Shown: positions 5,766 to 47,380 of the stretch, in pieces
Position numbering within the stretch: position 1 is the first letter of the stretch
Layout of the letters: every line of letters begins with the position of its first letter
Assembly (NCBI GenBank): GCA_965261085.1
Contig: OZ253442.1
Coordinates: 2,022,920 to 2,086,919 of the forward strand
DNA from: a bacterium
GTDB lineage: Bacteria; UBA8248
Reading direction: 5' to 3'
DNA length: 64,000 bases
Notes under the pieces: generated by a model
Database searches by the model: none
What the model was told of the DNA's origin: nothing
Seen by the model: the letters and a program-made list of their open reading frames with translations, nothing else
Translations under genes and position numbers: made by a program

Positions 5766-7052
5766 ATGATATTGTCGGTTAAGCCAACCATCGCAAAAGG
5801 AACCACCAGCGTACCCGGTTCGAAATCCCATTCCATCCGCGCCGTCGCGTTCGCATCCCTGGCTTCCGGGAAAAGCGTGATATCAAACCCCCTGGATTCA
5901 GAGGACGGCCTCTCGGCGGCCAGCGTCTACGCGAGCTTTGGCGCTAAAATACACAAGGAAAATGAGGTCTGGTCCGTGGAGGGTTTCGGCGCCCGGCCCA
6001 ATGCGCCTCAAGGAATTCTCGACGTGGGAAATTCAGGGACCACCTGCCGGATGGCGCTCGGCACCGCCGCGCTCATACGGGAGGGCGAAGCTTGTTTCGA
6101 TGGCGATCCCCAGACCAGAAAACGCCCGATGGGGCCATTGCTCGATGCCCTCCAAAACCTGGGCGCAAAGACGCAATACGGCGGCGGCTTCCTGCCCGTC
6201 ACGGTGGGCGGCCCGTGGCGCGGCGGCCGGACGAAAGTGGACGGGACGACCAGTCAGTTTACGTCCTCCTTGTTGTTGAACGCACCTTTCGGCGAGGAGA
6301 CAACCATCATCGAGCCGATTGATCTGAACGAGCGCCCATACGTCGAGATGACGCTGTGGTGGCTTGATCGTCTGGGCTTACGATACGAGCGCGATGAATA
6401 CCGCAGCTTCATGGTTCCGGGCGGACAGACGCTCTCTAGATTCGAAGTTACCGTCCCCGCCGATTGGAGTTCCGCCGCCTTTCTCGTGGCCGCAGGCGCG
6501 CTGCCGGGTGGTGACGTAACGCTCGAGGGGCTGGATCTCAACGACTCTCAAGGGGATAAGGAGATTCTCAGATTCGTCGAGGAAATGGGCGCTGATGTTC
6601 TCGTCACAGAGACCAGCGTCCGAATACGCGGAAAAGCGCTGCGCGGAGGTGAATTCGACTTAAACGCCACGCCCGATCTGCTGCCAGTCATGGCCGTGCT
6701 CGGTGCGTTCGCAGATGGGGAGACCAGACTCCTCAACACGCCCCAGGCCCGCATCAAGGAAACGGATAGAATCTCCGCCATGCGCGAAGTGCTCGAAACG
6801 TTGGGCGGTGAGGCGAGAGAACTGACGGATGGCATCATTATTAAGGGTGGCGGATTGAAGGGCGGGGCTGTTCATGGTTTCGGCGATCACCGCGTCGTCA
6901 TGTCCGCAGCCATTGCCGGGCTCGCCGCCCCGGAGGGAGTATCGGTCGACACGGCGGAGGCGATGGCGGTAACATTTCCTGATTTTTGCGAACGCATGGC
7001 GTCACTGGGCGCCGATATACAGACGAAGGATTCATTCGATGCCAATCTATGA
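5766..7052 (+). CDS. aroA: 3-phosphoshikimate 1-carboxyvinyltransferase (EPSP synthase)
   Basis: 428 aa with PGSKSHSIRAVAFASLA, GNSGTTCRMALG, KETDRISAM and GDHRVVMSAAIAGL. Confidence 0.9.
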   Translation: MILSVKPTIAKGTTSVPGSKSHSIRAVAFASLASGKSVISNPLDSEDGLSAASVYASFGAKIHKENEVWSVEGFGARPNAPQGILDVGNSGTTCRMALGTAALIREGEACFDGDPQTRKRPMGPLLDALQNLGAKTQYGGGFLPVTVGGPWRGGRTKVDGTTSQFTSSLLLNAPFGEETTIIEPIDLNERPYVEMTLWWLDRLGLRYERDEYRSFMVPGGQTLSRFEVTVPADWSSAAFLVAAGALPGGDVTLEGLDLNDSQGDKEILRFVEEMGADVLVTETSVRIRGKALRGGEFDLNATPDLLPVMAVLGAFADGETRLLNTPQARIKETDRISAMREVLETLGGEARELTDGIIIKGGGLKGGAVHGFGDHRVVMSAAIAGLAAPEGVSVDTAEAMAVTFPDFCERMASLGADIQTKDSFDANL

Positions 7053-7371
7053 GTATGAGTGCAAGGAGTGCGGCTTTATTTCCGGCCATCTGGTGATGAA
7101 GCCGGCGGACAGGAGAAAACTCACCTGCCGCTCCTGCGGAAACAAAAAACTCAGAAAAATCATGTCGCGCTTTTCTTCTCACCAGACCGAAGCCCAGCGG
7201 CTCGAATCGTTCGACCCATCGAAGCCGCAGGACGGTTCTTTCTACAAGGACGATCGCAACATCGGGCTCTGGGCCCAAAAACGCGCCCAGCAGCTGGGCG
7301 TCGACCTTGGCGATTCTTTCGGTGAAACCCTGGAAAAGGGACGCTCGAAGAAAATTCTCGATAACCTATGA
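7039..7371 (+). CDS. FmdB-family zinc-ribbon protein
   Basis: MPIYEYECKECGF...CRSCG signature. Overlaps the aroA stop by 14 nt. Confidence 0.7.
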   Translation: MPIYEYECKECGFISGHLVMKPADRRKLTCRSCGNKKLRKIMSRFSSHQTEAQRLESFDPSKPQDGSFYKDDRNIGLWAQKRAQQLGVDLGDSFGETLEKGRSKKILDNL

Positions 7372-7375
7372 GGTC

Positions 7376-8059
7376 ATGTTGACCCTCGAAATTAAGATGA
7401 GCGAGGCGCTTCGCGCCGAGGCGGTGCCGCTTTGGGAAACAATCCATGAGCATTCCTTCGTTCGGGGCCTCGGTGAAGGCACCCTGCCTCTTGCGCAATT
7501 TCGCTTCTATATGTGCCAGGACTACATTTTCTTGAAGGAATACAGCCGCGTCATCGCCCTGGCCGTCGTGAAAGCCCCCGAACTGGCGGATATGGGGCGT
7601 TTCGCCGACCTGCTGAACGCCACGCTGAACACGGAGATGGAACTCCACCGGAGTTTTGCGGCGAAATTCGGCATATCAACCGCAGAGATTGAGGCGACAA
7701 AGCCCGCCCCCACGTGCAAGGGATACACCGATTTCCTGCTCGAGGCGGCCTATTCGGGCACGTTCGGGGAAATCGCCGCCGCCATGCTACCCTGCCAATG
7801 GGACTACGCCATCATCGGCGAGTTGCTCGCCTCCAAGGGGGTCCCTGAAAACGCGCCGCTCCACGCCGAGTGGATAGAGACTTACGCGTCCGATGAATTC
7901 GCTCAACTCGCCCGCTGGCTGCGCGAAATGCTCGACCAAGCCGCATCGACCGCCAGCCCCGCCGAGCGTGAGCGCATGCGCGCGCACTTTCTGATGGGCA
8001 CGCGATATGAATACCTCTTCTGGGATATGAGTTGGAACATGGAAGAGTGGCCCCTATAG
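7376..8059 (+). CDS. tenA: TenA-family thiaminase II / aminopyrimidine aminohydrolase
   Basis: WETIHEHSFVRGLGEGTLPLAQFRFYMCQDYIFLKEY and a C-terminal YEYLFWDM. The start was chosen at the first ATG after the fmdB-like stop; 7397 is an alternative. Confidence 0.8.
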   Translation: MLTLEIKMSEALRAEAVPLWETIHEHSFVRGLGEGTLPLAQFRFYMCQDYIFLKEYSRVIALAVVKAPELADMGRFADLLNATLNTEMELHRSFAAKFGISTAEIEATKPAPTCKGYTDFLLEAAYSGTFGEIAAAMLPCQWDYAIIGELLASKGVPENAPLHAEWIETYASDEFAQLARWLREMLDQAASTASPAERERMRAHFLMGTRYEYLFWDMSWNMEEWPL

Positions 8060-8080
8060 CCCAAGCCGGATAGAGCCGAT

Positions 8081-8617
8081 ATGTCCCCCAGAACGCGAAA
8101 AGACATCCCCAACCCCAAACGGTGCACATGGGCCGAGGGCGACCCGATGATGGAGAAATACCATGACGAGGAATGGGGGTTTCCCGTCCGAACGACCCGG
8201 AAACATTTTGAACAACTGACGCTCGAAATCTTTCAGGCGGGCCTCTCCTGGCGAACCATCCTCCATAAGCGCGCGGAGTTCAGAAAGGAATTTTTGCGAT
8301 TCTCACCCGAGAAGGTCGCCCTCTTCACCGAGAAGGATATTAGACGCATTCTCGGGAACACCGGCGTCGTGCGGAACCGAAAGAAAATCGAGGCGACCAT
8401 CGAGAACGCCAAAAGATTCCTGGCCATCCAGAAAAAACATGGCTCGTTCAACCGCTACCTCGCCTCCCTGCCGGACGATCTACCATCGTTACAAAAGATA
8501 TTCCGCGAGGAATTCACCTTCATGGGACCCAAGATCGCAGAAGCCTATCTCGAAAGCGTGGGGAAGATACCCGAACTCCACGATCCGCGCTGCTGGCGGA
8601 ATAAAACAAATAGATAA
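8081..8617 (+). CDS. tag: DNA-3-methyladenine glycosylase I
   Basis: RCTWAEGDPMMEKYHDEEWGFPV...FEQLTLEIFQAGLSW is typical of Tag. Confidence 0.85.
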   Translation: MSPRTRKDIPNPKRCTWAEGDPMMEKYHDEEWGFPVRTTRKHFEQLTLEIFQAGLSWRTILHKRAEFRKEFLRFSPEKVALFTEKDIRRILGNTGVVRNRKKIEATIENAKRFLAIQKKHGSFNRYLASLPDDLPSLQKIFREEFTFMGPKIAEAYLESVGKIPELHDPRCWRNKTNR

Positions 8618-8762
8618 CCATTTATATATCAATAAATTACATATTTGTTACTAAAGTGTATTATCATATCTGTTCACCCGTTCGTCTCTCCTCTTTTGCT
8701 TTCAGAAATACCCCGTTAATTTATCGAAAAACCCCGTGAATTTATCTAAATTTATCGAATTG
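8607..8762. repeat. AT-rich inverted repeat, right arm (partner 3552..3652)
   Basis: 8718..8746 is the exact reverse complement of 3565..3593. This arm carries a ~45 nt insertion relative to the left arm. Confidence 0.8.
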
Positions 8763-8844
8763 TTCAGTTCATACCTGAGCGGTATGTGAGAGTTTGCGCT
8801 TCTCCTAAGAAGGCAAGATCGCGCCACTGAAGCCGAATCGCCCG

Positions 8845-9075
8845 TTTCATTTTCTCCCTCCTTCAATCGATGAGAACACTCTCTTTTCCCGAGCGGAATT
8901 CTCGCCTGGCTGGACCAAAACCCCGTGACGGCAAATGCGGGAAAATGCGTGATCAATACCGAGCGGGGAGGGAGGGATAGCCGAGCGGGGAGTGAGGGAT
9001 TGCCGACCAAGTGGAGTGGGACACTCTCGCCCGAAGAGAAGAGTATGCGACCGGCGAGAGAGGGTGCCGCTTTCC
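8845..9075. repeat. Degenerate array of the ~23 bp CATCGGTCGG-type repeat family, mostly reverse orientation
   Basis: The reverse complement gives ccctccctccccgctcggtattgatc, ccctcactccccgctcggctat, cccactccacttggtcggcaat and others. Confidence 0.6.
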
Positions 9076-9192
9076 TCCTGAGAGGACCTGCGCCATGCGG
9101 GAGATCCCGACGGCGGACTTCCAGCGGTGTTCAGGTCGGGAGTTTGTCGTCATCGACGCGCGGGGACGGGGAGGATGGGCCGAAAGTTCTCT

Positions 9193-9576
9193 TCAGGCCG
9201 TCTCGATATCGGTCTGAGCGAAGTCTTCGCCCTTGAACAGGAGCGGCTCGCCGGTGAGGTCCGCGAGGGCGTATGCGAAGCAATCGCCCAGATTCAGCCT
9301 CGCCGGATGATTCCCCCTTCCGAAGCGCCGCCAAGCGCGCCGGGCGGCCTGCGCCTGCTCCACCGTGACGGGTGCGAGTTCGATTCCCGCCGTTTCGATA
9401 AACGCATCGAGTTCCTCGCCCGCCGCCGCGCCGCCTCTGCCTTCGAGCACCATCGCCGCCTCGAGCAGCCCGACGACCGACATGCGGCAGTGGCCCTGCG
9501 CTATCGCCTTCTCGTAGCGCTCCGCGTCCGGCTCGCCGAACAGGACGGCCAGAAGAGCCGACGTATCGACAATCAT
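9193..9576 (-). CDS. vapC: Type II toxin VapC (PIN-domain ribonuclease)
   Basis: MIVDTSALLAVLFGEP... with acidic PIN residues (D4, E, LNLGDC). There is a 4-nt ATGA overlap with the upstream antitoxin. Confidence 0.85.
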   Translation of the reverse strand: MIVDTSALLAVLFGEPDAERYEKAIAQGHCRMSVVGLLEAAMVLEGRGGAAAGEELDAFIETAGIELAPVTVEQAQAARRAWRRFGRGNHPARLNLGDCFAYALADLTGEPLLFKGEDFAQTDIETA

Positions 9577-9830
9577 CTGGGCAGTCCCCGCTCGTCATAG
9601 AGCGCATCGCCGTGTTCGACGGCGGAGGGCCCCTGCCCGACCAGCCCGGCGCAGCGCCGCCCGATGGCGTGAAGTTCGCGGGCCAGGGCGTCCGCATCGC
9701 GCCGGCGTTTTTCCCGAGCGAGGCGCTCGCGCAGCGCAAGCGTGATGGCGCCCGTCTTGCTCTCTCCCGTCAGACGGGCGAGTTCGCCCGCGAGCCGGCA
9801 GGTTTCCTCGTTCTTGATGTTGAGGCCCAT
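9573..9830 (-). CDS. vapB: Type II antitoxin VapB
   Basis: 85 aa. MGLNIKNEETCRLAGELARLTGESKTGAITLALRERL is typical of VapB/FitA-like antitoxins paired with PIN toxins. Confidence 0.8.
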   Translation of the reverse strand: MGLNIKNEETCRLAGELARLTGESKTGAITLALRERLAREKRRRDADALARELHAIGRRCAGLVGQGPSAVEHGDALYDERGLPR

Positions 9831-9856
9831 CGCCTTTTCTCCTTGGGTGCACTCAA

Positions 9857-9885
9857 GGGTAGAATGCCTTTTCTTTTTCTACCCT
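9857..9885 (-). promoter_or_regulatory. Candidate VapB operator (9-bp inverted repeat)
   Basis: AGGGTAGAA-N11-TTCTACCCT lies 27 nt upstream of the vapB start. Confidence 0.35.
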
Positions 9886-10062
9886 AAGGCATTTCGGGAC
9901 GATGGGCAAGGGGGAATTTTGAAGCTAGGGATAGGGAATTGCGGCGATGGCCCGATATCATTGAGACGGCATCGATGGTTGGAACGGTATTAGCAGTCGT
10001 CAAAAGACATATGCTAAATCGGTTGGCGAGGCCAGTAGCTTTAATGTGCAGTTGGATCAATC

Positions 10063-10221
10063 CTAATCAAATCGCACATCCGAGCGGTTGCACTGGGGAC
10101 ATCGGACGGGTGAAGTCGGTCGATTCTTGCTCCTCGCCTTACGCTTTTCATCTTCGTCAAGGATATTTGTCTCAAACCTGTTACCGCAATTCCTGCAAAA
10201 AAAACGTACCAGTTTAGTCAT
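10063..10221 (-). CDS. 52-aa zinc-ribbon protein, translationally coupled to the TIR gene
   Basis: MTKLVRFFCRNCGNRFE...VRCPQCNRSDVRFD has two CxxC pairs. Its ATG overlaps the TIR gene stop by 8 nt (ATGACTAA). The composition is AT-rich like the TIR gene. Confidence 0.6.
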   Translation of the reverse strand: MTKLVRFFCRNCGNRFETNILDEDEKRKARSKNRPTSPVRCPQCNRSDVRFD

Positions 10222-11149
10222 AGGATATCCCTGCCTGTTTGATGAACTCAGACCATAGAATCTCTGCGGCCTGTTGAGGCGAGAGCTTTTTATCTTGGTC
10301 GGAAATAAAAAACATATGGGGCCGTAGGAAAAGGTCGTATTCGTCAGCTTCAACACTAAAGCCGCCGTTTGCAGTGTTAAGTGGAGCGTTCTCCGAAAAT
10401 GAGTAGTAGATGTCTGCAAAACCCATGTTACTGTTATGTGCATGTACGGTGATGTGTGCTGCTCCCCGGTTCATATGTTGGTTGACTATAGTACAAGTGA
10501 AGCTCTGCGGGTCGGCCGTAATCAAACGACCCCGAAGACCTTCGATGCTGTCAATTTCAGCGATAGCGGACTCGAAGAAGCTGTGAACTTCCTCAAATGC
10601 TTTATAGCGGAAATCTCTACGGTCAATCTCATCGAAGTCTCGTTTGACCCTATAGCGGTGACTTGCAGATACTGAAGGAGCGCTTGGTGTAACAGTCGTA
10701 GCGGGTTGAACTGCATTGTAGCTGGTTAGAATTCTTCGCAACTCTGTAACAATGTCCAAGAATGCATTGTTTTCGTTTGTCCATTCTGTGATGGGTTTTC
10801 CATCGCGCGGAAGTGCCTTTAGCTTTTTAAGTGAAGAGGCTTTCCAATCACATGGTTCAATGATTATCGGGACGACTCGCATCTGACCAGCATCGTGGCG
10901 CTCAAGTGCTCGCATCATTTCATTATCGTAGCAATAGTCTGATGCAAGGAAATCCGGGCTTATTAGTGGTAAAAAAAGACAACAAGACTCAAGTTGTTCG
11001 GAAATCTCCTGATCCAGATCTCCACCGGCGAGAATTTCTCGGTCATACCAGTTATTGAGTTCGCCATCACGGCGAAGCATCACAAGATGTGTATGCAGCC
11101 GTTCTAGAACTCTTTCGTCCTTGTGAGAATATGAGATGAACGCTTTCAT
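10214..11149 (-). CDS. TIR-domain protein with unrecognised ~170-aa C-terminal domain
   Basis: The N-terminus FISYSHKDERVLERLHTHL...LFLPLISPDFLASDYCYDNEMMRAL fits the bacterial TIR_2 pattern, including the conserved Glu. I could not assign the C-terminal half. The gene is clearly AT-richer than its flanks. Confidence 0.8.
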   Translation of the reverse strand: MKAFISYSHKDERVLERLHTHLVMLRRDGELNNWYDREILAGGDLDQEISEQLESCCLFLPLISPDFLASDYCYDNEMMRALERHDAGQMRVVPIIIEPCDWKASSLKKLKALPRDGKPITEWTNENNAFLDIVTELRRILTSYNAVQPATTVTPSAPSVSASHRYRVKRDFDEIDRRDFRYKAFEEVHSFFESAIAEIDSIEGLRGRLITADPQSFTCTIVNQHMNRGAAHITVHAHNSNMGFADIYYSFSENAPLNTANGGFSVEADEYDLFLRPHMFFISDQDKKLSPQQAAEILWSEFIKQAGISYD

Positions 11150-11322
11150 CTACTCTCTATCCTTCTCTTTTTGTTCTGATTTGTGAGTCAGCACTTTGAA
11201 TTTGGTTTTGGATTCTACATGGGCGGAAAGCGGAATATATCAGAATCAATTCATTTTGCAATGGTTTGGTTAAAGCGGGTTGGCCACTTTCGTTTTTCTA
11301 ATTGCGATAAACCCTCCCCCCC

Positions 11323-12435
11323 CTAACCCTCAAACCGGTAGAGCGCCATTGCGTTGTCGCGCATGATGCGCTGGCGCAGTTCGGCGTCCACTTGGCGGGG
11401 CAGGGCGTGGATAGGCGAGTCGAAATCCCAGTGGGGGTAGTCGGTGGCGAACAGGAGGATTTTCTCGGCGTGGGCCATCTCGAATATCTGGAGCAGGTGT
11501 TCATCTTTTTCGGGTTCCTCGATGGGCTGGCTCGTTACGCTGAAATGCTCATAAAAATACTCGCTCGGCAGCTTTTTGAGCCATGGGACTTCGGCGCGCA
11601 TTCCCCGGTAGTTCTTGTCCAGGCGCCAGAGCAGCCCCGGAATCCAGGAGAGGCCGCCTTCTATCAGGACGATTTTTAGTTTTGGGAAGAGTTCGAACAC
11701 GCCCTCGCAGATGAAGCTCACGGCGTGCGTCATGAAGCACTGGCACATGGCCGTGTGCCATTCGATGTAGTAGGTGGGCCAGCCCGAAGCCGTGGGCGGC
11801 GGCGCGTTGCCTGCGCCGGAACCCCCGAAATGTATGCCGATGGGGAGTCCGCGTTCTTCCGCCGCCTCGTATATGGGGTGATATTTCCTCTGGCCGTAGG
11901 GGGCGTGCGAGCCCGCCGGGAATAGCACCTGCGCCATGTCGGCGCGCTCGCCGACGCGCTTTATCTCATCCACGGCGTGCTGGGGGTCCTGATGCGAGAC
12001 GGTGATGGCTCCGCGCAGGCGAGCGTCTTTTTCGAGCCAGTGCTCGATGGTCCAGTCGTTATGCGCGCTTGCCAGGGCCGCGCCGAACTCGGGGATTCCC
12101 ATGAAGGAGACGTTGTAATACGCCCCGTTCAGCACCCCGTAGCTCACCCCGTAGGCGTCCAGAACCTGTTCCTGAAGCATCGAGAGGCTCGAACCCGCCG
12201 GGCCGCCCGGCGGTATGGCGTCCTTGCGGACGCCGCCGCCCGCCGTCTTGGGATAAGGCGCGTTCGGCAGTTTCGTATAGTCCGTTTCTTCGACGTAGTT
12301 TCGCCACTCGGTAGGTAGGTAGGGCAGCAGGGCGTCCAGAGAAGGGGGTACGTGGTGGATGTCGGAGTCCACCATGCCGAGGCTCGTCTCCGAGACCGGC
12401 TGGGGCGTTTTTACGGCTTGCGTGGTCGTGCTCAT
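11323..12435 (-). CDS. Amidohydrolase-2 family metal-dependent hydrolase (ACMSD-like TIM barrel)
   Basis: DSDIHHVP near the N-terminus and [10 protein letters not shown] near the C-terminus. 370 aa. Confidence 0.75.
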
Positions 12436-45780: not shown

Positions 45781-47340
45781 TTAAGAGCCCGCCTCGAGTT
45801 TCTGGCCCGCCATGAGGGAGCCTATCTGGTAGATGTCGTACTCGGGGCCGTCAAAAGCGCCTGAAATCTCCCCCGCATAGATCACGATGATCCGGTCGCT
45901 CATGAGGCGAAGTTCATCGAGGTCTTCTGAAATCAGCAGGACGCCTGCGCCTTGCGCGCGAAGCTCCTGTAAGCGGCCATGCACGAACGAGGCGGCCATG
46001 ACGTCGAGACCGCGCGTGGGGTTGTTGGCGATCATCACCTTCCCGCCCGTCTTGTGGGCGAGCATCACCGAGCGCGCCACGATGGTCTTCTGGATGTTTC
46101 CGCCCGATAGATGCGCGGCGGGCACGTGCTCGTTTCGCGCCAGAATGTTGAATTCCGCGATGGCGTTTCTACCCATTTCGTGGGCGGCCTCGCGATCGAA
46201 TATCCCGCGCCGCTTGAAGATGTGCGGGTGCAGGCCGAGCACGAAATTCTCCGCAAGGCTCAAGCCCGGCAGAATCCCCTCCTCGATCCTGTCCTGGGGG
46301 ATGAGGCTCATCCCCCGCGCGATGCGTTCGGACACCGAAAGGCCTGTGACCTCCTCACCGCCCAAGTGGACTTCGCCTTCTTGAATCTCGATGAGCCCGG
46401 CCAGGGCTTCCGCCAGTTCCTTCTGGCCGTTGCCGGAGATGCCCGCCAAACCGACGATGAGACCCCGGGGGACGTCGAAGGCGACGTCCTTGAGAGGCAC
46501 CCCCCACTTCGAGGAGGTATGAACCTCCCGAACCGAGAGGGCGGGATGCCCCTCCCGGGCCGCCGAAGGCCCGGTTGGCCGCTCGCCCTCCGGAGGCAGG
46601 CCGCGCTCGCCCATCATCATCTGGACGAGTATTTCGCGGGTGGCGTCCACGCGGAGGATCGTGTCGATCTTCCGCCCGCCCCGGAAGACGGTAATCCGGT
46701 CGCAGTTGTCCAGAACTTCCTGGATTTTGTGCGTGATGAAGACGACCGTCAGGCCCTCCTTGGCGAAGGACTTGAGTATCGAGAACAGACCGTCCACCTC
46801 GTGGGGAGTCAGCATGGTCGTCGGCTCGTCCAGAATCAGGATGTCCGCGCCGTGATAAAGCGCCTTCAGGATTTCGACTTTCTGCTGAATCCCGGCGGGA
46901 AGGGTTTTCACCTGCTCATCAAGCGGTATGGAGAGGCCGTAGTTCGCGGCGAGTTCCTCCACGGAACTGCGCCGGGCGTCCACGTCGAGCTTCCAGCGCG
47001 AACCTTCCCGCCCGAGCAGAATGTTTTCCAGCGCGGTGAAGTTGCCAATCAACTCCACGTGCTGGTGAACCATCCCGACGCCGGCCCTGATCGCATCCTG
47101 GGGAGAGCGGACCTCCACCTCGCGCCCGTCGATGGCGATTTGCCCATCGTCCATGCGGTAGAGGCCGCTCAGGATGTTCATGAGCGTGGTCTTGCCCGCG
47201 CCGTTTTCTCCGAGGAGGGCGTGGATCTCCCCCTCCCCCGCCTCGAAATCGACCGCGTCCAGGGCGACGACCTCCCCGAAGGACTTGCTGACGCCGTACA
47301 TTTCAACTCGGGGGACGATCTTTTCCGTCATCACTTTCAT
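45781..47340 (-). CDS. ABC transporter ATP-binding protein (two fused ATPase domains)
   Basis: Walker A GENGAGKTT, LSGG signatures in both halves and Walker B ILILDEPT. The start is ambiguous (47358, 47340 or 47331). Confidence 0.85.
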   Translation of the reverse strand: MKVMTEKIVPRVEMYGVSKSFGEVVALDAVDFEAGEGEIHALLGENGAGKTTLMNILSGLYRMDDGQIAIDGREVEVRSPQDAIRAGVGMVHQHVELIGNFTALENILLGREGSRWKLDVDARRSSVEELAANYGLSIPLDEQVKTLPAGIQQKVEILKALYHGADILILDEPTTMLTPHEVDGLFSILKSFAKEGLTVVFITHKIQEVLDNCDRITVFRGGRKIDTILRVDATREILVQMMMGERGLPPEGERPTGPSAAREGHPALSVREVHTSSKWGVPLKDVAFDVPRGLIVGLAGISGNGQKELAEALAGLIEIQEGEVHLGGEEVTGLSVSERIARGMSLIPQDRIEEGILPGLSLAENFVLGLHPHIFKRRGIFDREAAHEMGRNAIAEFNILARNEHVPAAHLSGGNIQKTIVARSVMLAHKTGGKVMIANNPTRGLDVMAASFVHGRLQELRAQGAGVLLISEDLDELRLMSDRIIVIYAGEISGAFDGPEYDIYQIGSLMAGQKLEAGS

Positions 47341-47349
47341 CCATTCCAA

Positions 47350-47380
47350 GCGCCCCACCCCCCGATCGGGGACGGGGCGC
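47350..47380 (-). other. Intercistronic GC-rich stem-loop between the binding-protein and ATPase genes
   Basis: On the mRNA strand: GCGCCCCGUCCCCGAUCGGGGGGUGGGGCGC. Confidence 0.5.

Follow-up and report, generated by a model that had tools for sequence, protein, structure and literature searches.

A TIR-Y4lF gene and a small zinc-ribbon partner gene as a candidate two-gene defence module in a UBA8248 bacterium

A low-G+C cassette with two overlapping genes

Our analyses of a 64,000-nucleotide stretch of a bacterial genome (GTDB lineage Bacteria; UBA8248; assembly GCA_965261085.1, contig OZ253442.1, positions 2,022,920 to 2,086,919 of the forward strand), here called the window and numbered from its first letter, centered on a gene pair that encodes a TIR-domain protein of 311 residues and a zinc-ribbon protein of only 52 residues. 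An earlier note made from the sequence had proposed this pair, lying next to a vapBC toxin–antitoxin (TA) module, as a candidate defence or NADase-toxin system, and both genes were found with all the features described for them. On the minus strand, an amidohydrolase-family gene (end at 11323) is followed by the 311-aa open reading frame (ORF), the 52-aa ORF, vapB and vapC. The 311-aa ORF (10214–11149) matches Pfam TIR_2, the PADLOC ThsB1 model and, by precomputed annotation, the Pfam family PF27176 named Y4lF; we hence refer to it as the TIR-Y4lF gene. The 52-aa ORF (10063–10221) encodes an FmdB-like zinc ribbon, MTKLVRFFCRNCG...VRCPQCNRSDVRFD, with two CxxC pairs. The two genes share 8 nt at the TIR-Y4lF stop (tcctATGACTAAactg), in agreement with the translational coupling proposed before.

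Together with the region upstream of them, the two genes make up a cassette that spans 10055–11322 of the minus strand, between the amidohydrolase stop (11323) and the vapB promoter. The composition profile reproduced the AT-rich island noted earlier, with a G+C content of 0.445–0.49 across approximately 9850–11300 and of 0.60–0.71 on either side. For the two-gene cassette as a whole, G+C is 0.461 versus 0.597 in the flanks, i.e., 14 points lower. Judged by its sequence features, the cassette is a horizontally acquired element. A tRNA that could mark a tRNA or tmRNA integration site was found nowhere in the 64-kb window, and for structured RNA there was no Rfam match at E ≤ 1 within 8000–12000. 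Upstream of the TIR-Y4lF gene, a promoter consensus scan predicted a sigma-70-like site on the same strand (11234–11261; TTGCAA, 16 nt, TG-n-TATATT), with 9 of 12 matches plus the TG of an extended −10 element. This predicted promoter sequence is kept at 7888–7915 of the closest relative, a locus labelled L081, whose TIR-Y4lF protein is 86% identical.

The small ORF recurs widely. In a sample of 80 homologous loci from GTDB species genomes, tblastn and a hidden Markov model built from the orthologues recovered the zinc-ribbon gene 38 times, almost always directly downstream of the TIR-Y4lF gene; of 34 loci with a measurable junction, 33 had an overlap of exactly 8 nt. Its median dN/dS was 0.14 (Nei–Gojobori, 64 unsaturated pairs), and between the window and L081 we obtained a dN of 0.079 and a dS of 0.77. 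Because the ORF recurs in these 38 loci and bears the signature of purifying selection, we regard it as a real gene and not a chance ORF, and the small ORF is indeed conserved beside TIR homologues, as the earlier note had left to be checked.

The orthologues follow the consensus M..VRFRCxNCGxRFExEVLxExExREARRxxRPTxxVxCPxCxRTDxRRGW[DE], in which C9, C12, C41 and C44 are invariant among 22 sequences. Their knuckles, an N-terminal '[FY]xCxxCGxxFE' and then CPxC, carry the FmdB signature. The window protein itself scores below the family cut-offs, both for Zn_ribbon_8 (8.3e-5, 23.0 bits versus 34.4 in Pfam) and for TIGR02605 (CxxC_CxxC_SSSS; 16.8 versus 31.3 in NCBIfam); many orthologues have a precomputed match to PF09723. 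The cassette zinc ribbon shares its knuckles with FmdB-type zinc ribbons but adds a charged helical insert (EVLDEDEKREARRxxRP) and, in most copies, a GW[DE] tail, and it is tied to TIR-Y4lF genes instead of being free-standing. The window copy lacks this tail and ends in RFD and a stop codon, whereas L081 ends in RIGWD (TGG versus TAG in the window). We considered this short C-terminus as a sign of decay and discarded the idea, since P0330 (a close relative, 87%) and several other variants of 52 aa share the short form; the short tail probably is tolerated. A separate zinc-ribbon protein of FmdB type, 110 aa long, is encoded at 7039–7371 (MPIYEYECKECGF...), where it adjoins aroA and tenA. With this housekeeping context, it appears unrelated to the cassette zinc ribbon beyond the knuckle motif.

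Gene callers usually skip the zinc-ribbon gene. Although intact in L081, its ORF is missing from the gene calls there, and the PLSDB table of a Phaeobacter plasmid does not list it either. In a collection of 5.8 billion proteins, called zinc-ribbon proteins form 99 clusters, compared with more than 3000 TIR-Y4lF clusters. As annotation misses the small partner ORF, the TIR-Y4lF family would have looked like a standalone one.

The TIR-Y4lF protein and its family

The TIR domain comprises residues 1–147 (nt 10709–11149), and the Pfam TIR_2 model (PF13676) matches residues 4–110 with 4.8e-16 and 59.8 bits versus a cut-off of 28. Within the CYDNEMM motif (residues 73–79), E77 is invariant in 75 homologues, as are S64, S70, Y72, C73, C100, W102 and P114, and the window protein retains all of the family-invariant residues. 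The bacterial TIR N-terminus with its conserved Glu was thus read correctly in the earlier note. In pairwise alignments, E77 falls on the Glu of the WC..E motif in Cat1 and TLR1; from established TIR enzymology we infer that it occupies the catalytic position. Among solved structures, that of Cat1, a CRISPR-associated, filament-forming TIR NADase, is closest by sequence (E values of 9.8e-9 for the single sequence and 7.6e-10 for the family profile). None of the Thoeris ThsB structures was matched even at E ≤ 10 in the PDB sequence and profile searches, and the second PADLOC match of the window protein was the SAVED-TIR effector model.

For the C-terminal domain, which had been called unassignable, a family can now be given. 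Its approximately 145 residues (169–311, nt 10217–10645) belong to the recent Pfam family PF27176, 'Y4lF', itself of unknown function; the assignment follows precomputed matches of the identical protein P0001 and of all 120 homologues listed. The family takes its name from y4lF, an uncharacterised ORF that Sinorhizobium fredii NGR234 carries on its symbiosis plasmid, and the product of this ORF is a homologue with 35% identity. Literature searches for 'y4lF' or 'PF27176' returned no relevant paper.

In the AlphaFold2 model, a disordered linker (residues 148–168, pLDDT below 50) separates two domains. Modelled alone, the Y4lF domain reached a pLDDT of 87 and a pTM of 0.83, and its predicted fold places an antiparallel sheet of six to seven strands between a long helix at the N-terminus and a helix at the C-terminus. 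The fold search that the earlier note had suggested hence started from a confident model; Foldseek gave nothing significant against the PDB and an empty result against BFVD. All top PDB matches in the fold search were E2 enzymes. We rejected an E2/UBC-like fold, as E values were 0.03–0.2, TM scores 0.36–0.38 and the root-mean-square deviation about 10 Å, and C219, the sole candidate for an E2-type cysteine, seemed conserved in close relatives but varies between C, A and S across the family. Among 75 homologues, the Y4lF domain has no invariant polar residue at all, and its invariant or nearly invariant positions are hydrophobic or aromatic. For this reason we read Y4lF as a putative binding or assembly domain rather than an enzyme.

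A search with the Y4lF domain only in 1.84 billion representative proteins yielded 275 clusters, nearly all of them 310–330 aa long with the domain at the C-terminus, and TIR-Y4lF is therefore the rule as an architecture. The family comprises more than 3000 clusters at 90% identity from many phyla and from plasmids. It is catalogued, i.e., as 'TIR domain-containing protein' at NCBI, as TIR_2 plus Y4lF in Pfam and under the ThsB model in PADLOC, but uncharacterised.

Partner gene, neighbourhood and insertion site

Further arrangements link the zinc ribbon with Y4lF. A single chain of 481 aa, P0197, combines TIR and Y4lF with a zinc ribbon of the cassette family at its C-terminus. The P0128 fragment likewise runs from Y4lF straight into the zinc ribbon, with a 1-nt frameshift error being possible. 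In P0156, a class III nucleotide cyclase replaces the TIR domain before Y4lF, and a 54-aa zinc ribbon of the cassette family follows; judging from this sequence, Y4lF retains its zinc-ribbon partner even with another enzyme at the N-terminus. At locus L086 (4821–7201), where the class III cyclase–Y4lF fusion (352 aa) precedes the 54-aa zinc ribbon, a second cyclase-domain protein (368 aa) is divergently transcribed from the fusion gene. Possibly, this arrangement corresponds to the TIR module with a cyclase in place of TIR.

The cassette zinc-ribbon family was also seen beside DUF4062-X proteins of roughly 370 aa, which combine an N-terminal DUF4062, a domain recently demonstrated to be a TIR-like NADase, with C-terminal 250 aa of unknown function. 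We noted such loci in L088 (2904–4150), L094 (2889–4147), L096, L135, L170, L171 and L173, with zinc ribbons of 48–54 aa that lie downstream in L088, L094 and L096 and upstream in L135 and L173. A general link between the two was dismissed, because the association is a minority one seen in only 5 of 80 metagenomic loci. A Y4lF-like domain in these DUF4062-X proteins was dismissed as well; hhalign found nothing, and its profile–profile comparison of DUF4062-X with TIR-Y4lF aligned 7 residues only.

No conserved third gene emerged when ORFs within ±8 kb of the 80 loci were clustered. Two candidates, an ORF of about 150 aa after the zinc ribbon (5 loci only) and an unrelated one of 173 aa at the same place (about 4 closely related loci only), are absent from the window and were not kept; they may be lineage-specific third genes. 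Loci with such third ORFs were L014 (2196–2657), L017 and L018 (9184–9639), L027 (9184–9654), L044 (1788–2276), and L026, L029, L030 and L082.

The neighbourhood survey agrees with the defence-island setting that the earlier note had assumed from composition and neighbours. In at least 21 of the 80 loci, genes of type I restriction–modification (R-M) systems or a gene for a WYL-domain protein lie within 8 kb. In about 15 loci, the TIR-Y4lF gene lies within a type I R-M operon (HsdM, HsdS, HsdR) or next to one, often with DUF2188, the PADLOC candidate PDC-S16, and seven loci have a WYL-domain protein gene nearby. Other neighbours include a pAgo-associated nuclease, AAA_15/AAA_21, NucS-like/DUF5655 and further TIR genes, and in single loci GmrSD (L081), DUF262 with relE/parE (M. 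extorquens p2META1) or MmeI (L092). We observed the small DUF2188 protein directly upstream of TIR-Y4lF within type I R-M operons in L001, L010, L013 and L024, which belong to different phyla.

A TIR-Y4lF homologue occurs on 48 plasmid records, and one cluster at 90% identity covers Pleomorphomonas, Acidomonas, Stappia and Marinicella. Among its hosts are free-living bacteria from sea and soil that belong to many phyla. These genomic data show a horizontally mobile family that resides in defence islands. Phages as carriers were considered and rejected, with only two distant IMG/VR matches and the empty BFVD fold search.

The vapBC neighbour (vapB, 9573–9830, PF07704 with 1.1e-25; vapC, 9193–9576, PIN with 6.7e-18; both on the minus strand) is a standard module of an Rv0623-like VapB and a PIN-domain VapC, which overlap by 4 nt at 9573–9576. 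An intact vapBC thus does lie beside the cassette, as had been noted, but it is not part of the module. Its G+C of 0.67–0.71 is unlike that of the cassette, PIN or VapB families do not recur among the neighbours of the 80 loci, and in L081 vapBC is reduced to short vapB 5' remnants with the TIR/zinc-ribbon pair kept. The vapBC module and the cassette are hence separate in composition and evolution.

The L081 locus also informs on the insertion site. Window positions 11370–10055 align at 87% to L081 7788–9095, and the L081 cassette occupies the same site after the orthologous amidohydrolase gene, with an extra GmrSD cassette in front. The junction between the two cassettes consists of two copied segments, 42 nt of the vapB 5' end and then 68 nt of the amidohydrolase 3' end. 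The segments concerned are L081 5472–5539, 7720–7835 and 10003–10134, and window positions 9778–9910 and 11323–11390. This arrangement resembles the outcome of unequal recombination, or of a cassette exchange, between conserved flanks. From it we take the interval between the amidohydrolase 3' end and vapB to be a variable hotspot, the cassette to be an independent 1.3-kb unit and vapBC to be a bystander. In full, the L081 hotspot contains the GmrSD cassette and, in tandem, the TIR-Y4lF/zinc-ribbon pair plus a 232-aa ORF.

Just upstream of vapB, an imperfect inverted repeat at 9843–9873 (TAGGGTAGAA ... TTCTACCCT), with a similar repeat at L081 10030–10056, probably is the VapB operator. On the other side, the spacer between a neighbouring gene, tag (8081–8617), and vapC (8620–9190) is AT-rich at 8620–8800 (G+C about 0.43) and then G+C-rich, and it has no Rfam or tRNA match. 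Its G+C-rich part holds a tandem 22-nt repeat (8959–8980 and 8981–9002, CCGAGCGGGGAG[GT]GAGGGAT[AT]G), and a 102-aa minus-strand ORF at 8702–9010 is of doubtful reality. A MADS system in the window was rejected, as the hits for mad2 (1.9e-13, 567–2546) and for mad3 and mad8 (3.7e-27 and 7.4e-11, 45784–47358) are partial domain matches in two proteins 43 kb apart.

Proposed function and rival readings

Our preferred reading, to which we assign a probability of roughly 55%, is that the two genes would constitute a compact anti-phage module, in which an infection-triggered, NAD-consuming TIR-Y4lF protein works with a zinc-ribbon partner. The first gene product would be a self-contained sensor–effector built from the TIR domain, a flexible linker and a non-enzymatic alpha+beta Y4lF domain. 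The second gene would be translated by coupling from the same mRNA, and its 52–54-aa zinc ribbon most probably would bind the Y4lF half. In the uninfected cell, TIR would be inactive. Upon infection, Y4lF, with or through the zinc ribbon, might recognize a phage-derived cue, and the TIR domains would then self-associate as in other TIR NADases. The active TIR could consume NAD+ by depletion, by forming an ADP-ribose (ADPR)-derived product or both, and the infected cell would stop growing. The zinc ribbon would act as a regulatory or co-sensing accessory, being neither the effector nor an essential antitoxin. NADase activity, trigger, TIR-Y4lF/zinc-ribbon complex and abortive-infection outcome are parts that we infer here, and an infection-activated NAD+ consumer is proposed by analogy to Swarozyc, Cat1 and TIR-SAVED.

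Swarozyc is a single DUF4062 (TIR-like) protein, in which a phage portal activates a supramolecular NADase and thereby abortive infection. Like TIR-Y4lF, it is a single chain in which an NADase-type domain at the N-terminus precedes a C-terminal part of unknown fold, and both occur in defence islands and lack a fixed partner; moreover, the zinc-ribbon family of the cassette is encoded directly downstream or upstream of some DUF4062-X proteins. The window protein differs in its canonical TIR_2 domain, as only TIR_2 and TIR match it and not DUF4062 (PF13271), and the Swarozyc paper mentions no zinc ribbon. TIR-SAVED (CBASS), Cat1 (type III CRISPR) and TIR-STING also combine TIR with a C-terminal regulatory domain. 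Since the TIR of the window protein is closest in sequence to Cat1 and the SAVED-TIR model, oligomerisation is a likely activation route, as in those effectors. Their sensors, however, bind a nucleotide from a neighbouring cyclase or CRISPR complex, and beside the window cassette there is no CD-NTase, cyclase or Cas10 gene. By PDB sequence and fold search, Y4lF is unrelated to SAVED, CARF and STING. The earlier statement that known TIR systems use other partners thus agrees with our finding that no ThsA, STING, SAVED or cyclase gene is adjacent.

Several points weigh against this proposal. We found no experiment on any member of the TIR-Y4lF family, and a physical interaction of zinc ribbon and Y4lF is deduced from genomics only. 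The zinc ribbon also accompanies a few DUF4062-X proteins without detectable similarity to Y4lF. In a neighbor-joining tree of 75 TIR-Y4lF proteins, it is present throughout the clade of the window protein with scattered absences, but it is absent from about half of the family, including a Bacteroidota subclade and most of a distant clade (36–40% identical). It follows that the zinc ribbon is not essential to the core mechanism. Finally, the full-length PADLOC ThsB match and the cyclase–Y4lF fusion hint at a signal generator instead of a depleting effector.

The last point leads to the rival that survives best, which we nevertheless consider unlikely, namely that TIR-Y4lF is an orphan or trans-acting sensor of the Thoeris type. 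A ThsB-like signal of the cyclic ADP-ribose (cADPR) type would then act on an unlinked effector or host protein, and the zinc ribbon would tune sensing. The PADLOC model PDLC00420 ('ThsB1|ThsB') matches residues 3–303 over profile positions 4–312 of 319 with 1e-71 and thus covers the whole protein including Y4lF, which implies that relatives were collected from Thoeris loci. Like ThsB, TIR-Y4lF is a short protein with an N-terminal TIR and its conserved Glu, a C-terminal extension that possibly senses infection and a defence-island lifestyle. Class III nucleotide cyclases are typical signal makers, and the one fused to Y4lF keeps the same zinc-ribbon partner. Furthermore, several different ThsB sensors are known from Thoeris loci (Ofir 2021).

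The neighbourhood speaks against this rival. PADLOC found no ThsA among the 54 ORFs of the 64-kb window, SIR2, SLOG and Macro were not among the most frequent families in PADLOC and Pfam censuses of 148 immediate neighbours of homologous loci, and the ORF clusters around the 80 loci contained no recurrent effector family. Unlike Thoeris systems, in which further effectors, ThsC–ThsL, were described by Yirmiya et al. 2025, TIR-Y4lF loci have neither ThsA nor one of these effectors adjacent, both in the window and in the 80 loci. With no effector in the window or beside the homologues, the locus is, as far as gene content tells, not a complete Thoeris system. The conserved zinc-ribbon partner is a further difference, as the Thoeris papers searched mention none. 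In addition, the TIR domain is closer to effector-type Cat1 and SAVED-TIR than to the solved ThsB structures, to which it is not detectably close, and the cassette moves as a 1.3-kb unit. The pair itself has no published description in the literature searched, to which newer DefenseFinder or PADLOC releases could add one; the earlier expectation of an undescribed system hence holds for the pair, and its TIR protein, although covered over its full length by the PADLOC ThsB model, likewise has no description in that literature.

Less probable still, in our view, is a TA-like addiction module, in which TIR-Y4lF would be a constitutively dangerous NADase toxin and the zinc ribbon its labile antitoxin, with any defence arising from antitoxin decay during infection. 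The tight two-gene operon with its fixed 8-nt overlap would suit such a module, and the family is frequent on plasmids and adjoins TA genes, for example relE/parE in M. extorquens p2META1 and vapBC in the window. A cognate immunity protein is required by many NADase toxins, as is established for SPN-IFS, TNT-IFT and Tne2-Tni2. The genomic record of the zinc-ribbon gene argues otherwise. The L019 locus is near-identical to L017 and L018 up to a deletion breakpoint 20 nt inside the small ORF, past which the sequences differ, the L021 gene has an in-frame stop, and the first zinc-ribbon Cys is replaced by Tyr in L029, L082 and the Phaeobacter plasmid copy. Some of these losses look recent, and the TIR-Y4lF genes beside broken or lost zinc ribbons keep E77 and nearly all family-invariant residues. 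Repeated loss beside an intact TIR, extending to whole clades, would hardly be expected of an obligate antitoxin. An accessory sensor or regulator would suit this pattern better, as would an activator whose loss silences the system. The fusion in P0197 and the position of the zinc ribbon immediately upstream, not downstream, of TIR-Y4lF in L057 and L092 also speak against an antitoxin. Of the two roles in the original proposal, defence thus gains from the island context, and the toxin with a small antitoxin is weakened.

A non-defence role in host interaction, symbiosis or endogenous NAD-linked signalling, with the small ORF as a generic zinc-ribbon regulator, we hold to be very improbable: the founding y4lF on a symbiosis plasmid, the lack of a known phenotype for the family and the precedent of host-interaction TIRs in Brucella effectors of the BtpA/TcpB type would allow it, but the family is found across many phyla in free-living bacteria of marine and soil habitats, the genes are repeatedly inserted in R-M operons and other defence loci, and their distribution is patchy and shaped by horizontal transfer.

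Returning to the two-gene anti-phage module, we may tentatively go one step further, with distinctly less confidence than we place in the module itself. Zinc ribbon and Y4lF could be a portable sensing and regulatory unit that is mounted on TIR, on a class III cyclase and, as the zinc ribbon alone, on some DUF4062 NADases. The result would be a widespread two-gene defence family that has been filed under 'standalone TIR' because its ORF of about 50 aa is not called.

Bacteria, plants and animals all use TIR-based immunity; for bacterial TIRs, the way in which infection is sensed is still largely an open question. Recurring in bacterial defence islands, the pair described here probably is a variant of TIR-based anti-phage immunity, and with its unannotated partner gene of about 50 aa, a TIR family that looked standalone becomes a two-gene system. 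If the zinc ribbon is a co-sensor or gate, it would represent a new mode of control for a TIR NADase and a reason to recheck 'standalone' TIR and DUF4062 genes for small partners that were missed. At 1.3 kb, the cassette would then also offer a very small and readily testable system.

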